Below are positions 33,973-40,184 of a stretch of 64,000 nt of DNA, piece after piece; the stretch's first letter is position 1, and each line of letters opens with the position of its first letter. This DNA is from a candidate division FCPU426 bacterium (GTDB lineage: Bacteria > Oederibacteriota > Muellerivitia > Muellerivitales > Muellerivitaceae): positions 32,001 to 96,000 of the forward strand of contig CAVYSE010000025.1 of assembly GCA_963771075.1 (NCBI GenBank), read 5' to 3'. The position numbers and the translations under genes were made by a program. The notes under the pieces were generated by a model. The model saw only the letters and a list, made by a program, of their open reading frames with translations, did no database searches and had not been told where the DNA came from.

Positions 33973-34731
33973 TTATTGAATGGAATGGCCGCCGGTAGAA
34001 AGGAACTTTTCAATCGCTCCCATGACAATCGAATGGTCGTAGTCCAGAGTGACCACGTGGTCCGACCGGTCGAGGTAAAGCAGGTGCTTCAAAGAAGATC
34101 CCAAACCCTGGTAGATGATTTCACCGTTTTTCGGCGGAACCATGGAATCCCTTCTGCCCTGTACGACCAGGGCTGGCGCTGTAATAGAACGCATTTCCTT
34201 CCGGACCCCATCCATCAGTTTTTTCAGCTCATACAGGCTTTGGGTGAACACGTAGGGATAGGTCAAATGGGGCGGCGCGGAAGGGTCCAATACCCCGCCC
34301 GTTAAATTCGAAGTGCGCCGCTGAAGGTGCCGGAAAAAGGCGATACCATTGAAGCGTATATCCCTGATCTTGACCGGGGCCGCGAGGGTGATTAGGCCCG
34401 CCACCGGATTCCGGGCCGCCAAGTGGAGGGTCAAGTCGCCCCCCATGGAAAGGCCCCCCACGAAAACTTGTTCACAACGGGAACGAAGGGCCCCATAGGC
34501 ATCTTGGGCGCTGGAAGCCCAATCTTCCCAGCGGGTCCGGGAAAGGTCCTCGGGGCTGGTCCCATGCCCTTCCAACCAGGGACCCAAGGTGCTGTAACCC
34601 TTGGGGCCGAGATGATCGCTGATAGGTTTGACTTCATCCGGAGTTCCGGACAACCCGTGCAGGAGCAGCAGGCCCACCGGTCCCGCCTTCACTTCGAACC
34701 CGGTCCTCATTTTCGGATGATGGGAGTCCAT
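33973..34731 (-). CDS. Carboxylesterase (Est/YvaK-like alpha/beta hydrolase)
   Basis: LLHGLSG, GLSMGG, D.MV, SDHVVTLD. Confidence 0.88.
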   Translation of the reverse strand: MDSHHPKMRTGFEVKAGPVGLLLLHGLSGTPDEVKPISDHLGPKGYSTLGPWLEGHGTSPEDLSRTRWEDWASSAQDAYGALRSRCEQVFVGGLSMGGDLTLHLAARNPVAGLITLAAPVKIRDIRFNGIAFFRHLQRRTSNLTGGVLDPSAPPHLTYPYVFTQSLYELKKLMDGVRKEMRSITAPALVVQGRRDSMVPPKNGEIIYQGLGSSLKHLLYLDRSDHVVTLDYDHSIVMGAIEKFLSTGGHSIQ

Positions 34732-35309
34732 ATCCCGGCGGTAACGTTCTGTTCCCTTTGGATCTCGGCAAGGATTTCGTCATCCGTCGGCCGGTCTTGG
34801 GGGTTTTTCCCCACGTATTTGTACCGGATCTTTTTGGTAGGATCGATGATGATGACGGTGGGGTGAGCAATGGGATGCCCGTTATGCCCCGCCTGGTTGA
34901 TTGCGCCGTAAGCCCCAATCAGGTTGAGTTTGACATCCGAAAGCAAAGTGAAAGGAAACCGCCATTGCTGGTTGAAACTGAGGCTTTCCTCGACCAGGTC
35001 CGTGCTGACGGCGTAAATGATGGAATGCAATTGAAGAAACCGGGAATAATCGTCTTTCAGCCCAAAAAGCTGGGTTTGACAAGCACCGCACCAATAACCC
35101 CGGTAGAAAAGAAGGACCAGGTAAGTGTTCGGGGGTACGCTGGTCAGGTGGGTCATTTGCCCGTTGCTGTCCAAGAGGGAAAAATCCGTGGCCATATCCC
35201 CCGGCGCAAGCCCGCCGGGTTTGGTCGTCACGGAGGGGGGAGCGCAAGAAAGGGGGCCCAGGAATAAACCGGTGAGAATACAGGCGGTCAATAGAATGCC
35301 CTTTACCAT
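34707..35309 (-). CDS. AhpC/TSA (peroxiredoxin-like) lipoprotein
   Basis: Lipobox PLSC, GD.A.DFSL, FYRGYWCGACQTQL. Confidence 0.85.
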   Translation of the reverse strand: MVKGILLTACILTGLFLGPLSCAPPSVTTKPGGLAPGDMATDFSLLDSNGQMTHLTSVPPNTYLVLLFYRGYWCGACQTQLFGLKDDYSRFLQLHSIIYAVSTDLVEESLSFNQQWRFPFTLLSDVKLNLIGAYGAINQAGHNGHPIAHPTVIIIDPTKKIRYKYVGKNPQDRPTDDEILAEIQREQNVTAGIWTPIIRK

Positions 35310-35427
35310 GATTCCATGTCCTTCACAATGAAATGGCCCAAGTTGCTGGGTTTAGAATAACCCCTAGGGGCAGTGAGTGCCAGCCTGAGCTTGGAGGTGT
35401 TGACTTATTTTCAGCCGCTTCCCAATA

Positions 35428-36231
35428 ATGAGCGCCATGATTTCCAGGATGATCCGCCTTTTCCCCCGAAAAACCTTTTCTTTTCCATTGGCATCGCTGG
35501 TTTTTTTTGCCGCCCTGTCCTGCATGGCCGCAAGTTCTCCTCCACCGCCTCCCGATTCCCAGGGATCGATCTTTATCCGTGAGAAAGTTGCCGATAAAAT
35601 CGCCTTCGAGTCCGCCTTCCAAGGCCTAAGAGATGAATTCAAGGACAATGGGTTCCTGGCCTATAGCCTTCACGCCGACCTTCAAAACCCCTCTTATTAC
35701 ATCCTGACGCTTCAATGTTCCAACTTGGAAAAGGGCCAAGCCTTTTTAAAATCAAAAAATTACCGGGCTTCGATGAAAAAGGCTCGGGTGACGGCACCCG
35801 TGGTTTGGTCCGGGTCGGATATCACACCCCGGGTTTACGATGTTCTTTCCCCCAAGCCCGCCGGCATCGTGATCGCACGCAACGACCTGAAATCCTACGA
35901 TTACTGGAAGGCCGTTTTTGACGAAGAGCATAACCCTTCCCACGGCGGCAAAAACCCGAACAAGGAAGAAGGCTATCACGAGCAAAGGAATTACAAGGCC
36001 AGCCAGTACAGCATCCACCGGGGCCTCGGCAAGCAAGACGTCGCATATGTAGTCCACCTGGCTTCGGACGTCTCGAAGGCTCCTGAATTCATGAGCTCAG
36101 CTCCCATGAAAGCGATGAAAGGGCCATTGGGTATTACTCGATTTGCGGTCTGGTATGGAGTGAACTTGGAACAAGGCGTTTTTACCGATAGCCCTACCAC
36201 AAAGCCCGCCATGGAGACACCCACCCCATGA
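35428..36231 (+). CDS. Exported protein with two tandem ABM/dimeric alpha+beta-barrel-like repeats; start may be ATG 35437
   Basis: Hydrophobic N-terminus; repeats REKVADKIAFESAF...AF and RNDLKSYDYWKAVF...EF; stop overlaps the next ATG. Confidence 0.72.
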   Translation: MSAMISRMIRLFPRKTFSFPLASLVFFAALSCMAASSPPPPPDSQGSIFIREKVADKIAFESAFQGLRDEFKDNGFLAYSLHADLQNPSYYILTLQCSNLEKGQAFLKSKNYRASMKKARVTAPVVWSGSDITPRVYDVLSPKPAGIVIARNDLKSYDYWKAVFDEEHNPSHGGKNPNKEEGYHEQRNYKASQYSIHRGLGKQDVAYVVHLASDVSKAPEFMSSAPMKAMKGPLGITRFAVWYGVNLEQGVFTDSPTTKPAMETPTP

Positions 36232-36566
36232 TCACCTTGAGGAAAAATACCGCGTCCTTCATGTGCCCGGTCCTCCTTGCGGTTTTACTTTCCCTCCTGG
36301 CGGTTGAAACCTCCCATCACCATGAGAAGCTGAAAGATAACGACCATTGTTCCGTTTGCGCCTGGCAGTTGACCGGATCGCAAGGGGTCACTGCTCCCGC
36401 TCCGCCTGTTCTCTTGCCGGTCCTACTCGTTCTGACGCTTTTCTTTTTCTTTCCCCTCCTCCAGGTCTTCAAGCTAATTCAATCCCGCGGAAGGTCTCCC
36501 CCCTCCTCCCCCTTTAAAGCTGACGATCAACGGCTTTTTTCGAAGCCGAATTTAAAAGGAGGACAC
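36228..36566 (+). CDS. DUF2946/CutF/CruR-like leader peptide (TM-HHH-CxxC-Pro-rich-RSPP); reads in frame into the next gene in this sequence
   Basis: MITLRK-hydrophobic-SHHHEKLKDNDHCSVC...APAPP...SRGRSPP. Confidence 0.72.
36504..36563 (+). promoter_or_regulatory. Anti-SD/SD sequestering stem upstream of the outer-membrane gene
   Basis: TCCTCC (36504-09) pairs with GGAGGA (36558-63); TTTAAA (36513-18) with TTTAAA (36551-56); inner hairpin CGGCTT/AAGCCG. Confidence 0.65.
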
Positions 36567-37695
36567 ATGTCCCGTTATTTAAAATTATTTTTCATCGCAG
36601 CGCTTTTGGGCTTCCCCCCATTCGGCCTGGCCCAAACCCGATCCATCATTTCCAATCTGGCGAATCCCGCCATTGGAATGAGCGCCCTTTTTCTTGGGCA
36701 GGAAGCCCCCAACCTGAGCCAATCCGGCCTCAACGGAATCCAGTTCCAGGAAGCCGAACTCAGCGTCATTTCCACGGTGGACCCTTACTGGACCCTGGCG
36801 GCCAACCTGGTCTTCGGGGCCAACTCCAATGACGGCATACCCGACACGGTGGAGGCGGAAGAAGCCTATGCCACCACCGACAGCATCCCGGATATCCAGT
36901 TGAAGGTCGGGGAAATGCGGGCCCAATTCGGCAAGCATGGTCTTCTGCACACCCACGCCTTTCCCTTCATCCAAGCCCCCATTGTCATGGGCAATTCCAT
37001 CGGTATGGAAGGTTTCAAGGACGCGGGAATCCAGGCGGCCTGGCTGACCCCCCTGTCATGGTTCTGCGAATTGACCGCGGGGGCCTACACCCCGGTGGCC
37101 GATGACGAAACGTGAGAACGGCGGGCAGGGCAATCACCCCTTGGATTTTAATTCCTCGTCCCATGACAACATCCCTTACCTAGTCCACTTGAAGAACCTC
37201 GTCGATGTGGACGAGGACACGACCATGGAGCTGGGAGCGTCCGATTTGACGGGAATGGGCGACGATGGCCTTCACCACGCGGTATACGGAGCGGACCTGA
37301 CGTTCCGCAACGTTCCCCTTCGGGAGTCCAACCAACACGGATGGATCCTCCAGGGGGAATACATCAAGAAGGTTTCCTATGAAGATAGCGTTTATAACCA
37401 GGAAACCGACGGGTGGTACGGGTCCTTCCAGGACCGCTTGTCCCAGGAATGGTGGACCGGCTTGCGTTACGAACAGTGTTTCAACACCACGCCCGACACC
37501 CAGGTGGACCCCACCGAGAACTCGCTAACCGGCCATGTCCAGCGGGTTTCCGCCGACATCGCGTGGCTGGCTTCGGAATTTTCGGAAGTACGGGCGGAGT
37601 ACAGTTACGCTTGGAACGACACGGGATCGGTGGATAACCGGGCGATGCTTCAATTTAATTACGTCATCGGCTTCCACCCGCCGCATTCGTACTAA
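36567..37695 (+). CDS. Putative outer-membrane metal-uptake beta-barrel protein, frameshifted at ~37110
   Basis: Strong SD, signal peptide, NPAIG, EAEL...VDPY, EEAY, FGKHGLLHTH, C-terminal IGFHPPHSY; two overlapping ORFs. Confidence 0.75.
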
Positions 37696-37698
37696 AGA

Positions 37699-37750
37699 CA
37701 GCTTTTAGCTGTTAGCCCTTGGCTAATAGCTAACTGCCAAAAGCTAAAAA
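37699..37750. repeat. Inverted heptamer array (TAGC / GCTAA units)
   Basis: CAGCTTT TAGCTGT TAGC ... GCTAATA GCTAACT GCCAAAA GCTAAAA; 37700-37716 vs 37729-37745 are 15/17 complementary. Confidence 0.72.
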
Positions 37751-37765
37751 CCTAAGGAGAAACAA

Positions 37766-38681
37766 ATGAAATCGCTCAAACAAATGATTTTCGCAGTTCT
37801 AACGGCGGTATTCGCCGTGCCGGCGTTCGCCGATTTGAAAGGTGGCCACTTCCCTCTCGGACCTGGCCTCCGTGGCCCAGTTCGTGGGAGGCTCCCACGT
37901 GACGGCCACCAGCCTCTGCAAGGGCTACGAAGACCCGCACTTCGTGCCCGCCAAGCCAAGCTTGATGAAGGCCATTCAGGACGCCGACGTTTTCGTGTCG
38001 GTCGGCCTGGAACTGGATGGCGGCTGGCTCCCCCTGGTCATTCCGGGAAGCCGAAACCCCAAGATCCAGCCGGGCGCCAAGGGTTTCATTGACGCCTCCG
38101 AGGGCGTGAACGTGCTGGAAAAACCCATCGGGACGGTCAGTCGGGCCGAGGGCGATATCCACCCCCTGGGCAACCCGCATTACTACACCGACCCGGCCAA
38201 CCTGGAAGTGGTGGCGGACCACTTGGCCCGGGTCTTTGGCGAACTAGACCCGGCCAATGAGGCCGATTACGCGGCCAACGCCAAGGCCTTCGACGAGAAA
38301 ATGGAGAAATCGCTCAAGGAATGGGAGGCGCAGATGAAGCCCTACCGAGGCTCTGCCCTTGTGGTTTTCCATGAGAACTTCGTTTATTTCGCCGAGCGTT
38401 TCGGGTTGAAGCTCTTCGGTACGGTGGAACCCAAGCCCGGCATTCCGCCCAACCCGCGCTACCTCACTGAAACCGCCGAGGCCATGAAAGCCGCAGGGGT
38501 CAAGGTGGTGATCTACCAGCCCTACCATGACGCGGATGCGTCCAACGTGCTGGCGAAAAAGGCGGGCGCCACGGCCTATGTGATCCCCACGGAAGTGGGG
38601 GGAACGCCCGAGGCGAAGGACGTCTTCACGAAATTTGACTTTATCGTGTCCACGCTCTCCCAAGCCTTCTCGCAAAAGTGA
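37766..38681 (+). CDS. Cluster A-I (ZnuA/TroA-like) metal ABC substrate-binding protein, frameshifted at ~37840
   Basis: RBS AAGGAG, signal peptide AFA in ORF 37766; body has EDPHF, GLELD, GDIHPLGNPHY, FHENF.YF, EPKPGIPP. Confidence 0.88.
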
Positions 38682-38689
38682 GGTAAAGT

Positions 38690-39514
38690 ATGTCGAATTT
38701 CTTTTCCGTGATGGCATTGCCCATGCTGGCGTGCCTGCTGTTGGTGTTGATCCTTCCCTCCTTGGGCCAGCATGTGCTGGCCCGGGGGGTCATCTTCGTG
38801 GACCTGGCCCTGGCCCAGATCGCGGCCTTGGGGCAAAGCGTGGCCTTCCTCCAGGGCGCCGAACCCCATGACCCGGCCACCTATTACTGGTCGTTCGGTT
38901 TCACCCTCTTGGGGGCGGCCCTCTTCAGTTTCCTTTGGGACCGGGGCCACTCCGTGCTCCAGGAAGCCTTCATCGGAATCGCCTTCGCTTTCGCGACGGC
39001 CACCTCCCTTCTCCTCTTGGCCAACTCGCCCCATGGGGCGGAGCACGTCCAAGGAACCTTGAGCGGGGAGGCCTTGGGATGGGTCACCTGGAAAGACATC
39101 GCGATCATGGCGGTCTTTTACGCCCTGGTGGGGGCTTTTCTTTATAAGAAACACAAGACCCTAATGCTTTGCTCCAGTGACCCGAAGGAAGCCGCCCGCC
39201 AGGGTATATCCTTGAAGCTTTGGGACTTCCTCTTTTATATGGCCTTCGGGCTGGTGGTTACCGACGCCGTCAGGGTTTCGGGAGTGCTGGCGGTCTTCTC
39301 GTTCCTGATCGTGCCCATTGTTTGCGCCAACTTGATGGGTCACAAGAGCCACCACCGGCTTTATTGGGCTTGGAGCATCGGGTTGGTGATATCGGTCTTG
39401 GGCTCGGTGCTTTCGTACGTGAAAGACTGGCCGATGGGCGCGACCGTGGTCTGCATGTTCGGTTTAGCGGTCATCGTGATTTCAATCGCCACAAGGATGA
39501 AAAACGCGGAATAA
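38690..39514 (+). CDS. Metal ABC transporter permease (ABC-3, ZnuB/MntB-like)
   Basis: GVIFVDLALAQIAALG, EAA-like loop DPKEAARQG, GVLAVFSFLIVP. Confidence 0.88.
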   Translation: MSNFFSVMALPMLACLLLVLILPSLGQHVLARGVIFVDLALAQIAALGQSVAFLQGAEPHDPATYYWSFGFTLLGAALFSFLWDRGHSVLQEAFIGIAFAFATATSLLLLANSPHGAEHVQGTLSGEALGWVTWKDIAIMAVFYALVGAFLYKKHKTLMLCSSDPKEAARQGISLKLWDFLFYMAFGLVVTDAVRVSGVLAVFSFLIVPIVCANLMGHKSHHRLYWAWSIGLVISVLGSVLSYVKDWPMGATVVCMFGLAVIVISIATRMKNAE

Positions 39515-39520
39515 AACCTA

Positions 39521-39651
39521 GTTTTATCCATCGATGCATAGGTTTCATGGGATAAAACAAACATTAAAAGTTGCAAAGGCTGCTTTGGCATTTCATAAAT
39601 AGAAAACCTTAAAGCCTTTGCCTATCCCAGCACATCCCTTGTATTCGCGGT
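39521..39651. repeat. Copy of the CCAC-GATGCATGGG family with a degenerate partner arm
   Basis: 39528-39553 CCATCGATGCATAGGTTTCATGGGAT is 20/26 identical to the reverse complement of 17539-17564; local perfect IR GTTTTATCC/GGATAAAAC. Confidence 0.55.
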
Positions 39652-39674
39652 TAATTGTCCTTGTTTTTTTAGTA

Positions 39675-39720
39675 AAACAAAAAAGCCGCCCCCCTTTCAG
39701 GGGGCGGCTTTTACTTTATT
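39675..39720. terminator. Bidirectional intrinsic terminator between the metal operon and tatA
   Basis: AAAAGCCGCCCCC-CTTTCA-GGGGGCGGCTTTT with A/T tails. Confidence 0.9.
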
Positions 39721-39726
39721 AAAGGA

Positions 39727-39999
39727 CTATGAAATTACCGACTTTGGCGGATCGGCGGGCTTGTTCTCGACCGGCTGCGTTGGAGCAGCTGCAGCAGGCG
39801 TTTGCGCCTGGATTTGGGCCTGGGGGGCAGGTTGGGGAGATGTATTCGGCGAATTGGAGGTCGTATCCCCGTTCGCGGCCTTTTTAAATTCCCTGATCGC
39901 CTCGCCCATGGCCTTGGCCAAATCGGGCAATTTTTGAGGCCCGAAAAGCAACATCGCCACAATGAATAGAAGCAACAACTCCCCGAAACGTCCGCCCAT
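39727..39999 (-). CDS. tatA: Twin-arginine translocase subunit TatA/E
   Basis: ELLLLFIVAMLLFGPQKLPDLAKAMGEAIREFKKA; RBS AGGAG. Confidence 0.92.
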   Translation of the reverse strand: MGGRFGELLLLFIVAMLLFGPQKLPDLAKAMGEAIREFKKAANGDTTSNSPNTSPQPAPQAQIQAQTPAAAAPTQPVENKPADPPKSVIS

Positions 40000-40184
40000 G
40001 TGAATCTCCTGAATGAAAGTGTGTTTATTGTAGAAACTCGGCCCGGCGAAGTAAAGATGTACTCAGGTTCAAAATTTTAAAATGTTCTGATTCTCCCGCT
40101 TTTTCCAACCCTATTTTAGCAGGCCAGCCGGGTTTGGATTATGATCATTCTAACCTAAAATAACGAAATCCCAGAGGAACACGA

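Follow-up and report, generated by a model that had tools for sequence, protein, structure and literature searches.

The porin–znuA–znuB operon in the window, the 64,000-nucleotide stretch of DNA analyzed here, is preceded by a short leader that is best read, from its sequence comparisons, as a DUF2946-like arrest leader with a putative CruR-type input and CutF-type output in the service of zinc uptake. We propose, with moderate confidence, that a ribosome stalls at the leader RSPP motif, covers the anti-Shine-Dalgarno (anti-SD) tail and frees the porin Shine-Dalgarno (SD) sequence, such that the operon is translated when zinc is scarce. The nascent chain would be exported, and 44 residues would reach through exit tunnel and translocon and thereby place the HHH and CxxC motifs on the periplasmic side. 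When the metal, likely zinc, is scarce, the ribosome would stall at Arg-Ser-Pro-Pro and cover the last codons of the leader, unpairing the porin SD and allowing translation of porin–znuA–znuB. Binding of Zn2+ would fold the HHH–CxxC unit, pull the chain and release the arrest in accordance with the CruR logic. The released ribosome would terminate four codons further on, and the tail would pair again with the SD to turn uptake off, as a CutF/SecM-type output. A further layer may come from Rho, through the C-rich 3' half of the leader RNA. The leader, together with its paralogues, would hold in this lineage the place of the Zur boxes that lie before homologous Vibrio operons.

The core of this proposal is supported by an ORF with its own stop, by the invariance of the H/C/C/R/P/P residues, a fixed motif spacing, compensatory tail–SD changes and a zinc-type uptake context. 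A preliminary description of this DNA had already suggested an arrest leader with an anti-SD directly after its RSPP motif and a Zn/Mn-type importer as a target; the comparative data support that core idea, with the anti-SD in the final codons of the leader and an importer of the Zn type, and with corrections in the register of the stem and in a proposed alternative stem.

A conserved leader gene and an assembly error

The leader ORF lies on the forward strand, as do the features below unless noted, at 36228–36516 (ATG at 36228). It comprises 96 codons once a missing C is restored, ends with GRSPPLLPL-stop and is separated by 50 nt from the porin gene on the same strand. The preliminary description had found no stop, proposed either a leader–porin fusion or an error in the C runs and suggested inspection of the sequence data. 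The error is real. Contigs of both sequencing runs X1 and X3 carry one more C after 36497, in the run at 36498–36503 that lacks one C in this assembly, and the leader ORF therefore closes as SPLLPL* at TAA 36514–36516. The X3 contig spans 36371–36543 and the X1 contig begins 18 nt before the error; both runs come from the same study, and six further runs have no contig listed across this place. A search of sequencing runs gave no RNA dataset containing this DNA, a result that has no bearing on expression. A leader–porin fusion protein is ruled out because two runs contain the additional C and 30/30 relatives have separate stops. The apparent fusion is a one-base assembly error, and two other indel errors occur within the same 1.4 kb (37112–37113 and 37841).

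The other elements of the preliminary description are present, namely ATG 36228, HHH, CSVC, RSPP, TCCTCC (36504–36509), GGAGGA and the porin ATG at 36567. The leader begins with a basic N-terminus and a hydrophobic segment (36228–36314), a predicted export signal or anchor with a maximal KD19 of 2.32 in a KD scan (1.57–2.84 in 30 relatives). The His cluster HHH (residues 30–32; 36315–36323) follows, with H30 invariant and H32 present in at least 90% of 30 leaders, and then CSVC (residues 41–44; 36348–36359), whose two Cys residues are invariant. A second hydrophobic segment (36405–36461; KD19 2.56) is located ~10–30 residues N-terminal of the Arg residue of the RSPP arrest-type motif (36492–36503), which lies 44 residues after CxxC. 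A six-frame translation of the 4.39-Mb genome contains four instances of the pattern CxxC-(42–47 aa)-R[ASGDP]PP, three of which are this leader and its two paralogues, which exceeds a chance pattern.

A search for upstream ORFs before homologous operons, as suggested earlier, identified a conserved leader with RxPP and its own stop in 25/25 family porin–znuA–znuB loci and an own-stop leader in 30/33 fetched loci, with the stop 2–8 codons past the motif. In 30 leaders with a mean identity of 43%, H30, C41, C44, R89, P91 and P92 are invariant, and synonymous codons differ at these residues (both TGC and TGT occur for Cys). The CxxC-to-RxPP spacing is 44–45 in 27/30 leaders and 44 in this one. 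The leader of relative P0152 ends with QSRGRSPPLLPL, and leaders of the same genus end with LFPL*, LFPL* and TLPL*. On these comparative grounds, the leader is a conserved stand-alone gene.

The DUF2946 HMM (PF11162) gives this leader 15.1 bits and two paralogues 21.5 and 19.8 bits, below the cut-off of 23.7; 20/30 relatives match at E<=1, and the best (E 2.1e-5) is just above the cut-off. The comparison with DUF2946 leaders made earlier thus fails at the Pfam cut-off but holds for CxxC, RxPP near the stop, the motif spacing and the upstream position. The DUF2946 traits present are CxxC, RSPP followed by four codons to the stop, a hydrophobic N-terminus in the KD scan and a length below 150 aa, and the published CxxC-to-RAPP spacing is ~45 +/- 2 (PMC9426467). 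We consider these leaders a divergent fringe of the DUF2946 family as judged by profile and motif. Annotation misses such genes, which are short, carry no annotation and score under the Pfam threshold.

Is the motif suited to arrest? In PMC12992588, Ala and Gly are fully permissive and Ser, Asp and Pro partly permissive at residue x of the arrest motif, and the CruR stall has Pro3 in the P site. Every x in the 30 leaders (Ser 21, Ala 4, Gly 4 and Asp 1) falls within these residues. RSPP gives only partial arrest in ApdA/ApdP, and the motif by itself is insufficient (PMC12992588). Among the best 150 of 340 distant matches, the motif is RAPP in 89, RSPP in 40, RGPP in 6, RDPP in 4, HAPP in 2, RCPP in 1 and missing in 8, and its distance from CxxC is 43–47 in 141 of the 142 motif-bearing matches. 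Carriers of the leader include a cultured organism, Sulfurovum mangrovi. The leader is therefore likely a DUF2946-like arrest leader, with arrest as its predicted activity. It is very improbable that the ORF instead encodes a small metal-binding membrane protein with an accessory role, or a true leader–porin fusion, without regulatory arrest. The two hydrophobic segments would suit such a membrane protein, and the assembly has an open frame into the porin, but an ordinary accessory role leaves the invariant RxPP, its permissive x, the fixed spacing and the first position in the operon unexplained, and the fusion is contradicted by the contigs, the 30 relatives and the nearby indels described above.

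A predicted stem between the leader tail and the porin SD

The closing codons of the leader, together with its stop, form the anti-SD arm (36504–36518). Its 3' partner (36551–36563), assigned by sequence and folding, contains the SD GGAGGA (36558–36563). Between them lies an inner hairpin, CGGCTTT/GAAGCCG (36532–36549), found by alignment pairing and RNAalifold; 88.7% of its cells are paired in the family alignment, with double changes in 3/6 pairs. With a free tail, the minimum-energy fold of 36500–36575 in this genome (-17.9 kcal/mol, z -2.0) is a stem of TCCTCC:GGAGGA and TTTAAA:TTTAAA, and ~3.7–4.0 of the six SD bases pair with TCCTCC in the ensemble. The stem drawn in the preliminary description around the CGGCTT/AAGCCG hairpin is thus retained as the minimum-energy structure with a free tail, with a z-score of just -0.4 to -0.7 in wider flanks. 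The competing AAAGCTG/CGGCTTT stem of that description was dropped because it accounts for 0.1–0.9 of seven pairs in the ensemble and its AAAGCTG arm is unconserved in relatives.

The TCCTCC register likewise applies to this genome and not to the family, whose conserved arm lies 4 nt further 3' in the CCCCCTTT/TAA register. As a family anti-SD, TCCTCC was rejected, with 51% pairing compared with 86.5% in the shifted register. The conserved anti-SD, as defined by the alignment, corresponds to the final two sense codons and stop of the leader. None of 500 shuffles reaches the 86.5% pairing of this tail:SD helix, and slid controls yield 38–54%. One pair changes from G-C to U-A in six rows, corresponding to ~2–3 lineages on the tree, and only 10/25 tails exceed their synonymous shuffles at p<=0.05, the loci being kin. 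The RNAalifold consensus did not recover the tail:SD helix; it contained just the inner hairpin plus a short, invariant stem formed by the GRSPP codons. No Rfam covariance model matched near its gathering score within 35000–40000.

Would a stalled ribosome open this stem? In the family, the median cost of SD opening is 10.2, 8.5, 5.0 and 3.5 kcal/mol for a covered edge at R+12, +17, +19 and +21, respectively, and a drop of at least 2 kcal/mol is predicted in 21/24 loci. The effect depends on the assumed footprint edge because the arm is barely covered at edges +11 to +15, where the footprint reaches just the first 0–4 nt of the 8-nt arm. In this genome, the cost falls merely from 7.9 to 6.9 kcal/mol, and the predicted switch is weak because the freed SD is predicted to enter a GGAC/GUCC mini-hairpin (36561–36572) that spans the start codon and competes with the open state; loci L037, L053 and L054 have stronger predicted switches. 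Folding with and without a ribosome footprint, as proposed earlier, therefore favors SD release in the family and only a weak effect here (~1 kcal/mol). Outside the family, the drop is predicted in 9/35 scored, more distant loci, and most loci of the zrg-like class, with spacers of 150–190 nt, show none. The anti-SD output is thus not general outside the family. The tail varies with its partner, as TTCCGCTC vs GAGCGGAG in three Nitrospinota-titled loci and ATCCTCCTG vs CAGGGGGAT in six TonB-class loci.

The weak switch here, in most distant loci and in the zrg-like class raises the possibility, which we consider unlikely, that the same arrest leader acts mainly through Rho-dependent termination, as CruR does (PMC9426467), with the tail:SD stem secondary or limited to some lineages. 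Rho is present in the genome (716.5 bits), C far outnumbers G in the 3' half of the leader (53 vs 18 in 36390–36516; median C/G 2.5 in 30 leaders), and the RNA of 36405–36461 is a possible rut site. However, this C-richness is partly due to Pro, Leu, Phe and Ser codons, and the short leader–porin spacers (36–50 nt in 24/25 family porin-class loci) and the covarying helix argue against this reading.

Operon context and the metal probably sensed

A sigma-70-type promoter-like site, TTGACT-18-AATAAT (35400–35429; 10/12 matches), is weak by itself because two such sites were found vs 2.0 expected. Similar sites lie 7–29 nt before 16/30 relatives' leaders, a count reached post hoc by loosening a stricter pattern that gave 5/30. 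In most relatives, the site directly precedes the leader, whereas one gene intervenes in this genome (35428–36231; ORF with a weak ABM-like profile match and an uncertain start). The TGA of this gene overlaps the leader ATG (ATGA), and translational coupling is possible; the same gene precedes the leader at the same-genus loci L034, L035 and L046.

Downstream, the outer-membrane porin gene, an omr homologue (36567–37695), is split by one extra base at 37112–37113 that is absent from contigs of four runs, and the L034 porin is intact at 375 aa. An alignment-based model (pLDDT 86.6; 32 for the single-sequence fold) matches porin folds, and the omr label 'TonB-dependent receptor' does not fit this predicted fold. 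A cluster A-I solute-binding protein (SBP) of the ZnuA family (37766–38681; PF01297, 165 bits; one extra base at 37841) and an ABC-3, ZnuB-type permease (38690–39514), the sole PF00950 match in the genome, complete the operon, which has no ATPase gene and is closed by a bidirectional intrinsic terminator-like hairpin found by sequence scan (39681–39712). The SBP motifs DPHF, NPHY and FHEN align with three His positions of AdcAII-like chains, and the best PDB matches are of the AdcAII/ZnuA type. We take these three His residues to be zinc ligands; Mn-type cluster A-I SBPs have Glu as the third ligand. Of the Zn/Mn-type importer proposed earlier, the Zn type is thus supported and the Mn type is not.

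The Vibrio omr–znuAII–znuBII operon matches this one in all three genes and in their order, also without an ATPase gene (hhalign 99.7% for the porin vs V. campbellii omr; SBP E 8e-39), and in V. parahaemolyticus these genes are induced 1034-, 543- and 283-fold under zinc limitation (PMC9817125). The homologous V. campbellii operon lacks a leader and has two perfect Zur boxes, which points to zinc, whereas the operon described here carries a leader and no such box. The Vibrio-type box TGTTAT-N3-ATAACA was found at <=2 mismatches in 0/30 leader promoters, was absent from 35101–36227 and had no perfect match in this genome, although the host's box may differ. No perfect palindrome is common to more than 3/29 leader promoters. 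The Zur HMM NF008646 exceeds its cut-off in 0/31 family genomes, but just 1/14 controls passes, which makes this result uninformative on the presence of Zur.

Leader copies number 62 across 28/31 family genomes, and paralogues head TonB and zrg-like operons. Some precede ABC–FtsX–DUF3299 genes, like the Zur-controlled zrgCBE of the Vibrio zrgABCDE operon (PMC9817125). This context points to the leader as a likely zinc sensor. We give little weight to the alternative that its CxxC motif serves to sense Cu, Ni, Co, Mn or the thiol state of the periplasm. CxxC is the copper motif of CruR (PMC9426467), CutF-like proteins with His-only motifs precede HupE/UreJ Ni/Co genes, no NCBIfam equivalog model reaches its cut-off for the SBP (AztC scores highest at 95.6 bits, followed by MntC at 65.8), and a divergent AhpC/TSA gene, assigned by profile match, lies at 34707–35309. 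In contrast, two target operon classes have Zur-controlled, zinc starvation-induced Vibrio homologues, the SBP matches are of the AdcAII/ZnuA type with three aligned His residues, and the first genes downstream of the 62 copies (five without assignment) include no identified copper chaperone or oxidase.

The sign of the response could also be reversed, as in CutF: metal arriving in the periplasm would bind, induce the stall and turn the operon on. Such a logic has been demonstrated for the sole DUF2946 member with an anti-SD stem, and a weak RSPP motif might require a ligand. We regard it as quite unlikely because metal induction is the wrong sign for an importer and the target homologues are induced several hundred-fold by zinc limitation (PMC9817125).

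More tentatively, and as a possibility rather than an expectation, paralogous, exported His3-CxxC leaders may sense zinc where the chain leaves the translocon and gate all three types of zinc-uptake operon in this lineage (porin–ZnuAB, TonB receptor and zrg-like) as a zinc regulon run by arrest rather than by a repressor, one that replaces Zur across several uncultured phyla, with zrgD/DUF2607 of gammaproteobacteria as the same device beneath Zur. The leader model would suggest a role for zrgD, whose function is given as unknown in PMC9817125. The DUF2607/ZrgD HMM (PF10795) had no match at E<=10 in the genome, none among the 30 leaders and none in two plasmid-collection records, and hhalign of the leader profile against the A. 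caviae leader gave a probability of 0.5, with no sequence homology found.

Comparison with known arrest leaders

The class of mechanism is already known. New here are the regulon-wide leader count, the exchange of Zur box and leader, and the variation of the tail with its partner. In the literature searched, metal-sensing arrest leaders were tested for copper only and a zinc version was not found; the supplements of PMC9973294 covered by the search do not mention ZnuA or DUF3299. A zinc version, if true, would make the same device a general periplasmic metal gauge, join the CruR input sign with the CutF output and offer a candidate answer to how zinc uptake is controlled in these bacteria without a recognizable Zur box.

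CruR (Bp2923) of Bordetella pertussis and this leader are both the first gene of a metal-uptake operon (PMC9426467). They share an export signal (predicted here), CxxC, an RxPP motif within a few residues of the stop, a CxxC–RxPP spacing of 44–45 here and 45 in CruR, and C-rich leader RNA in the presence of Rho. Since the target is an importer, stalling would turn the operon on and metal would turn it off, as in CruR. The two differ in the motif (RAPP in CruR, RSPP here), in the invariant His cluster before CxxC and the second hydrophobic segment of this leader, in the spacer (162 nt in CruR, ~50 nt with an anti-SD in the last codons here) and in the target, which is a Cu-linked TonB transporter for CruR and porin–ZnuA–ZnuB here. 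The copper ligand of CruR is CxxC, and its output is Rho-dependent termination (PMC9426467).

CutF of Rhodobacter capsulatus is likewise an exported leader with a Cys motif whose stalled ribosome opens an SD-hiding stem, as predicted here (PMC9973294). However, CutF has CxxxC, its stall is induced by copper and its target is a detoxifying oxidase (PMC9973294 / 10.1101/2022.11.11.516240; 10.1101/2025.02.05.636593). The CutF stem is described as intergenic, whereas the putative anti-SD of this leader is coding sequence and its target is an importer. In secM, a stem overlaps the end of the gene. ApdA/ApdP and SecM resemble this leader as small ORFs with an N-terminal localization signal and a motif near the C-terminus, and the RAPP peptides of ApdA/ApdP share RxPP with identical tolerated x residues (PMC12992588). 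Unlike this leader, they monitor Sec/YidC, precede secretion genes and have no metal ligands (PMC12992588).

The leader and its reading frame

The leader of the porin–znuA–znuB operon is a real and conserved gene. Its ORF of 96 codons, translated from position 36228, reads MITLRK...LLAVETS-HHH-EKLKDNDH-CSVC-(44 aa)-RSPP, with each motif at the position assigned to it in the preliminary description. As assembled, the leader frame remains open into the gene at 36567, which had been taken to reflect either a true fusion or an error in the C run. Contigs from eight sequencing runs were compared with the window, and the C run is spanned in two of them (X1 and X3, both from one study). Both contigs carry an extra C after 36497; the X3 contig (36371-36543) bridges the C run and is otherwise identical to the window, and the X1 contig starts at 36479, merely 18 nt to the left of the run. 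The corrected frame ends SPLLPL-stop, next to which the database relative P0152 has the C-terminus QSRGRSPPLLPL and three same-genus leaders end LFPL*, LFPL* and TLPL*. The extra C in two run contigs, together with the stand-alone leaders of relatives, which have their own stops, rules out a leader–porin fusion. The leader is misassembled by one base in the window and is almost certainly stand-alone.

The porin gene (36567-37695), the first gene 3' of the leader, and znuA are likewise frameshifted in the window assembly, and their frames are restored in run contigs with one base fewer at 37112-37113 (four runs) and at 37841 (one run), respectively. Because three indels (C run, 37112-37113 and 37841) lie within 1.4 kb, other broken genes of the window are suspect and may be artefacts. 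Past the porin come the genes of the znuAB pair (37766-39514), whose products match the ZnuA family of binding proteins (165 bits) and the ABC-3 permeases (95.6 bits), and a terminator-like hairpin at the 3' end of the operon. The permease is the only ABC-3 match in the genome (n = 1; 96.7% complete). An ATPase gene is absent beside znuAB in the window and in 31 relative loci; in a distant locus, L064, a LolD-type ATPase gene comes next.

The leader is kept across relatives. A search with the binding protein gave a match in 37 of 61 genomes, and the 33 best-scoring relative loci were taken for comparison. The upstream ORFs that the preliminary description had proposed to look for are present as stand-alone leaders 5' of the porin, with CxxC and RxPP retained, in 30 of the 33: 25/25 family loci (22 genomes) and 5/8 loci from the phylum's other families; of the three loci lacking a leader, one has just 413 nt of upstream sequence. 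The leader of one relative is identical to a protein that bears the label candidate division FCPU426, which probably places the window in this phylum. H30, C41, C44, R89, P91 and P92 are invariant at a mean identity of 43%, and codon choice varies at these residues. The CxxC-to-RxPP spacing is 44 (n = 20), 45 (n = 7) or 41-42 (n = 3), and the stop lies four codons past RxPP in 23/30 leaders. When 1.84 billion representatives were searched with the leader profile, 340 matched; among the best 150 of these, [RH]xPP lies close to the C-terminus in 142 and the spacing is 43-47 in 141. The x residue of RxPP is S in 21 leaders, A in four, G in four and D in one. For the arrest peptides ApdA/ApdP, a passage of PMC12992588 describes A and G as fully permissive at x and S, D and P as partly so, and places the two prolines of the CruR stall in the P and A sites. 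We infer that natural x variation fitting this tolerance is the strongest sign of arrest, through which the leader very likely regulates in cis.

Several features surround the leader. The gene at 35428-36231, which is conserved and has a weak ABM-like match, sits between promoter and leader in the window's genus, overlaps the leader start (ATGA) and has a homologue 3' of the permease in locus L042. An AhpC/TSA gene (34707-35309, reverse strand) diverges from the operon promoter; genes of this type are also among the DUF2946 operon members described in part of PMC9426467. The porin/znuA gap (37694-37750) contains a short imperfect inverted repeat, AGCT/TAGC-rich, which draws contigs from many unrelated places and is probably a dispersed intergenic repeat. 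In L051, L059, L036, L052 and L054, the -10 box ends just 7-11 nt 5' of the leader ATG, and these leaders may therefore be translated from leaderless mRNA.

Predicted structure at the SD

The TCCTCC:GGAGGA stem proposed from the sequence is the favoured fold of the window genome when the tail is free, but it is just 51% paired across the family alignment. This alignment comprises the window, whose row is offset by the missing C, and 24 family loci, with L044 (90-nt insertion) excluded. A helix that joins the SD arm to the final two leader codons and the first stop-codon base is 86.5% paired over the 25 rows, and one of its pairs changes from G-C to U-A in six rows (approximately two to three lineages on the tree), both counts being inflated by kinship among the loci. 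The entire structure scores above 500/500 shuffles and slid controls, and the tail scores p<=0.05 in 10/25 and p<=0.1 in 16/25 loci against synonymous shuffles. RNAalifold did not predict the tail:SD helix on the family alignment. The AAAGCTG/CGGCTTT stem, previously suggested to compete with the anti-SD stem, is minor in the predicted ensemble.

Ribosome cover was modelled in 24 loci (L040 removed as a near-duplicate) by shifting the boundary of the covered region along the mRNA. Counted from the motif Arg, the median SD-opening cost falls from 10.2 kcal/mol (R+12) to 8.5 (R+17), 5.0 (R+19) and 3.5 (R+21), after which it is flat. Relative to the P-site codon, R+17 to R+21 is +11 to +15, which we take to be the leading edge of the ribosome. 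An opening of the SD under cover is predicted in 21/24 loci, where the cost falls by at least 2 kcal/mol, but is small in the window itself (7.9 to 6.9 kcal/mol) because the freed SD is predicted to fold with GGAC/GUCC across the AUG.

Paralogous leaders and the metal

The source genome contains two further leader copies, 10 kb apart (locus L067, G000:C11). The copy at L067:3966-4265 carries RAPP and precedes a zrg-like operon (ABC ATPase-FtsX permease-His-rich protein-four DUF3299, with MerC), and that at L067:13634-13924 carries RSPP and precedes a TonB receptor-ExbB-ExbD-TonB operon. Outside these three leaders, six-frame translation of the genome gives one match to the motif pattern. The family holds 62 copies in 28/31 genomes, located before a porin (26), TonB receptor (19), ABC-FtsX-DUF3299 operon (10), MerC (1) or DUF3299 (1), with five unassigned or cut.

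Folding covered 24 of the 36 non-porin copies. In six TonB-class loci (L102, L103 and L108-L111), the tail ATCCTCCTG pairs, instead of with the SD, with CAGGGGGAT about 42 nt past the leader stop. When the tail is covered, the CAGGGGGAT strand is predicted to re-pair further 3', a downstream AAAA(G)TCCC being the alternative partner; CAGGGGGAT resembles an SD that has decayed and now serves as a relay strand. The L104 tail pairs with an SD 114 nt away, and an SD switch is not clear in the folded zrg-like copies. At L124 (G001:C32:5918-7244), two identical leader–TonB receptor operons lie in divergent orientation, through either inverted duplication or misassembly. Because Rho is encoded in the source genome and the 3' half of the leader is C-rich, a CruR-type (Rho) output may operate.

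The porin is modelled as a β-barrel (pLDDT 86.6) that matches general porins such as OprP, OmpC and ChiP. The porin profile matches the Vibrio campbellii protein heading the omr-znuA2-znuB2 cluster (99.7%), and the binding protein matches that of the cluster (E 8e-39). Passages of PMC9817125 name this cluster, report its 1034-, 543- and 283-fold induction in V. parahaemolyticus under Zn limitation, and place zrgE (DUF3299) and zrgD (DUF2607) in the Zur regulon. Two perfect TGTTAT-N3-ATAACA boxes lie immediately 5' of V. campbellii omr (0/200 shuffles), and a leader ORF was not found in that region. The box is absent from all 30 leader promoters. The two Fur-family genes of the source genome score best as Fur and PerR, both below cut-off. 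A Fur-family gene close to the leader in two family genomes (G013:C63:7727-8098 and G012:C29:38619-39008) could encode a local Zur-like regulator. On balance, we lean towards the full model, in which the leader would sense zinc, stalling would turn expression on and the anti-SD would be the output.

Distribution and relation to known arrest leaders

A GTDB genome scan gave 136 porin relatives, of which 80 were kept; removal of nine family loci, three duplicates and three short-flank loci left 65. A CxxC-(43-46)-RxPP leader is present in 44/65, under titles that include Eisenbacteria, Krumholzibacteriota, Nitrospinaceae, Poribacteria, Latescibacterota, Fibrobacteraceae and Bdellovibrionota. The SD cost drops in just 9/35 scored non-family loci, and three Nitrospinota-titled loci have another tail/SD arm, TTCCGCTC versus GAGCGGAG. 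A TGCRAC-N3-GTTGCA palindrome, a candidate metal-regulator operator, stands directly 5' of the gene in 3/21 leaderless and 0/44 leader loci; in these three (L184, L191 and L204, Bdellovibrionota-titled) it is 29-45 nt 5' of the porin start. In Sulfurovum mangrovi, the same porin operon follows a leader of the form HHH-CxxC...HAPP, and the spacer between them is longer. In Aeromonas caviae, an unannotated gene 5' of zrgA, in the zrgD position (L132:2042-2356), encodes signal-H..HxH-CTLC-(44 aa)-RAPP; its tail is complementary to the zrgA SD region, and a weak Zur-like box lies one gene further upstream. Relatives of the gene carry the label DUF2946 or DUF2607, and homology to the family leader profile was not found. 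This gene suggests that ZrgD/DUF2607 may be an arrest leader.

CruR, as described in parts of PMC9426467, has CxxC, RAPP, a spacing of 45, an importer target, a stall relieved by copper and a Rho output. CutF is exported, stalls upon copper induction and uses an anti-SD stem (sections of PMC9973294 with its preprint and a 2025 preprint). The leader has the motif and spacing features of DUF2946 proteins but falls below the Pfam cut-off, and is predicted to work like them. Neighbours named in the survey passages of PMC9426467 and PMC9973294 are Cu, Ni/Co, RND and TonB genes. The word "zinc" has no occurrence in the main texts of PMC9426467, PMC12992588 and two CutF preprints, and a zinc-linked arrest leader was not found in the literature searched, chiefly open-access, although the survey supplements may list such neighbours. 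A zinc-linked leader would be a variant on the known kind of arrest leader represented by CruR and CutF.
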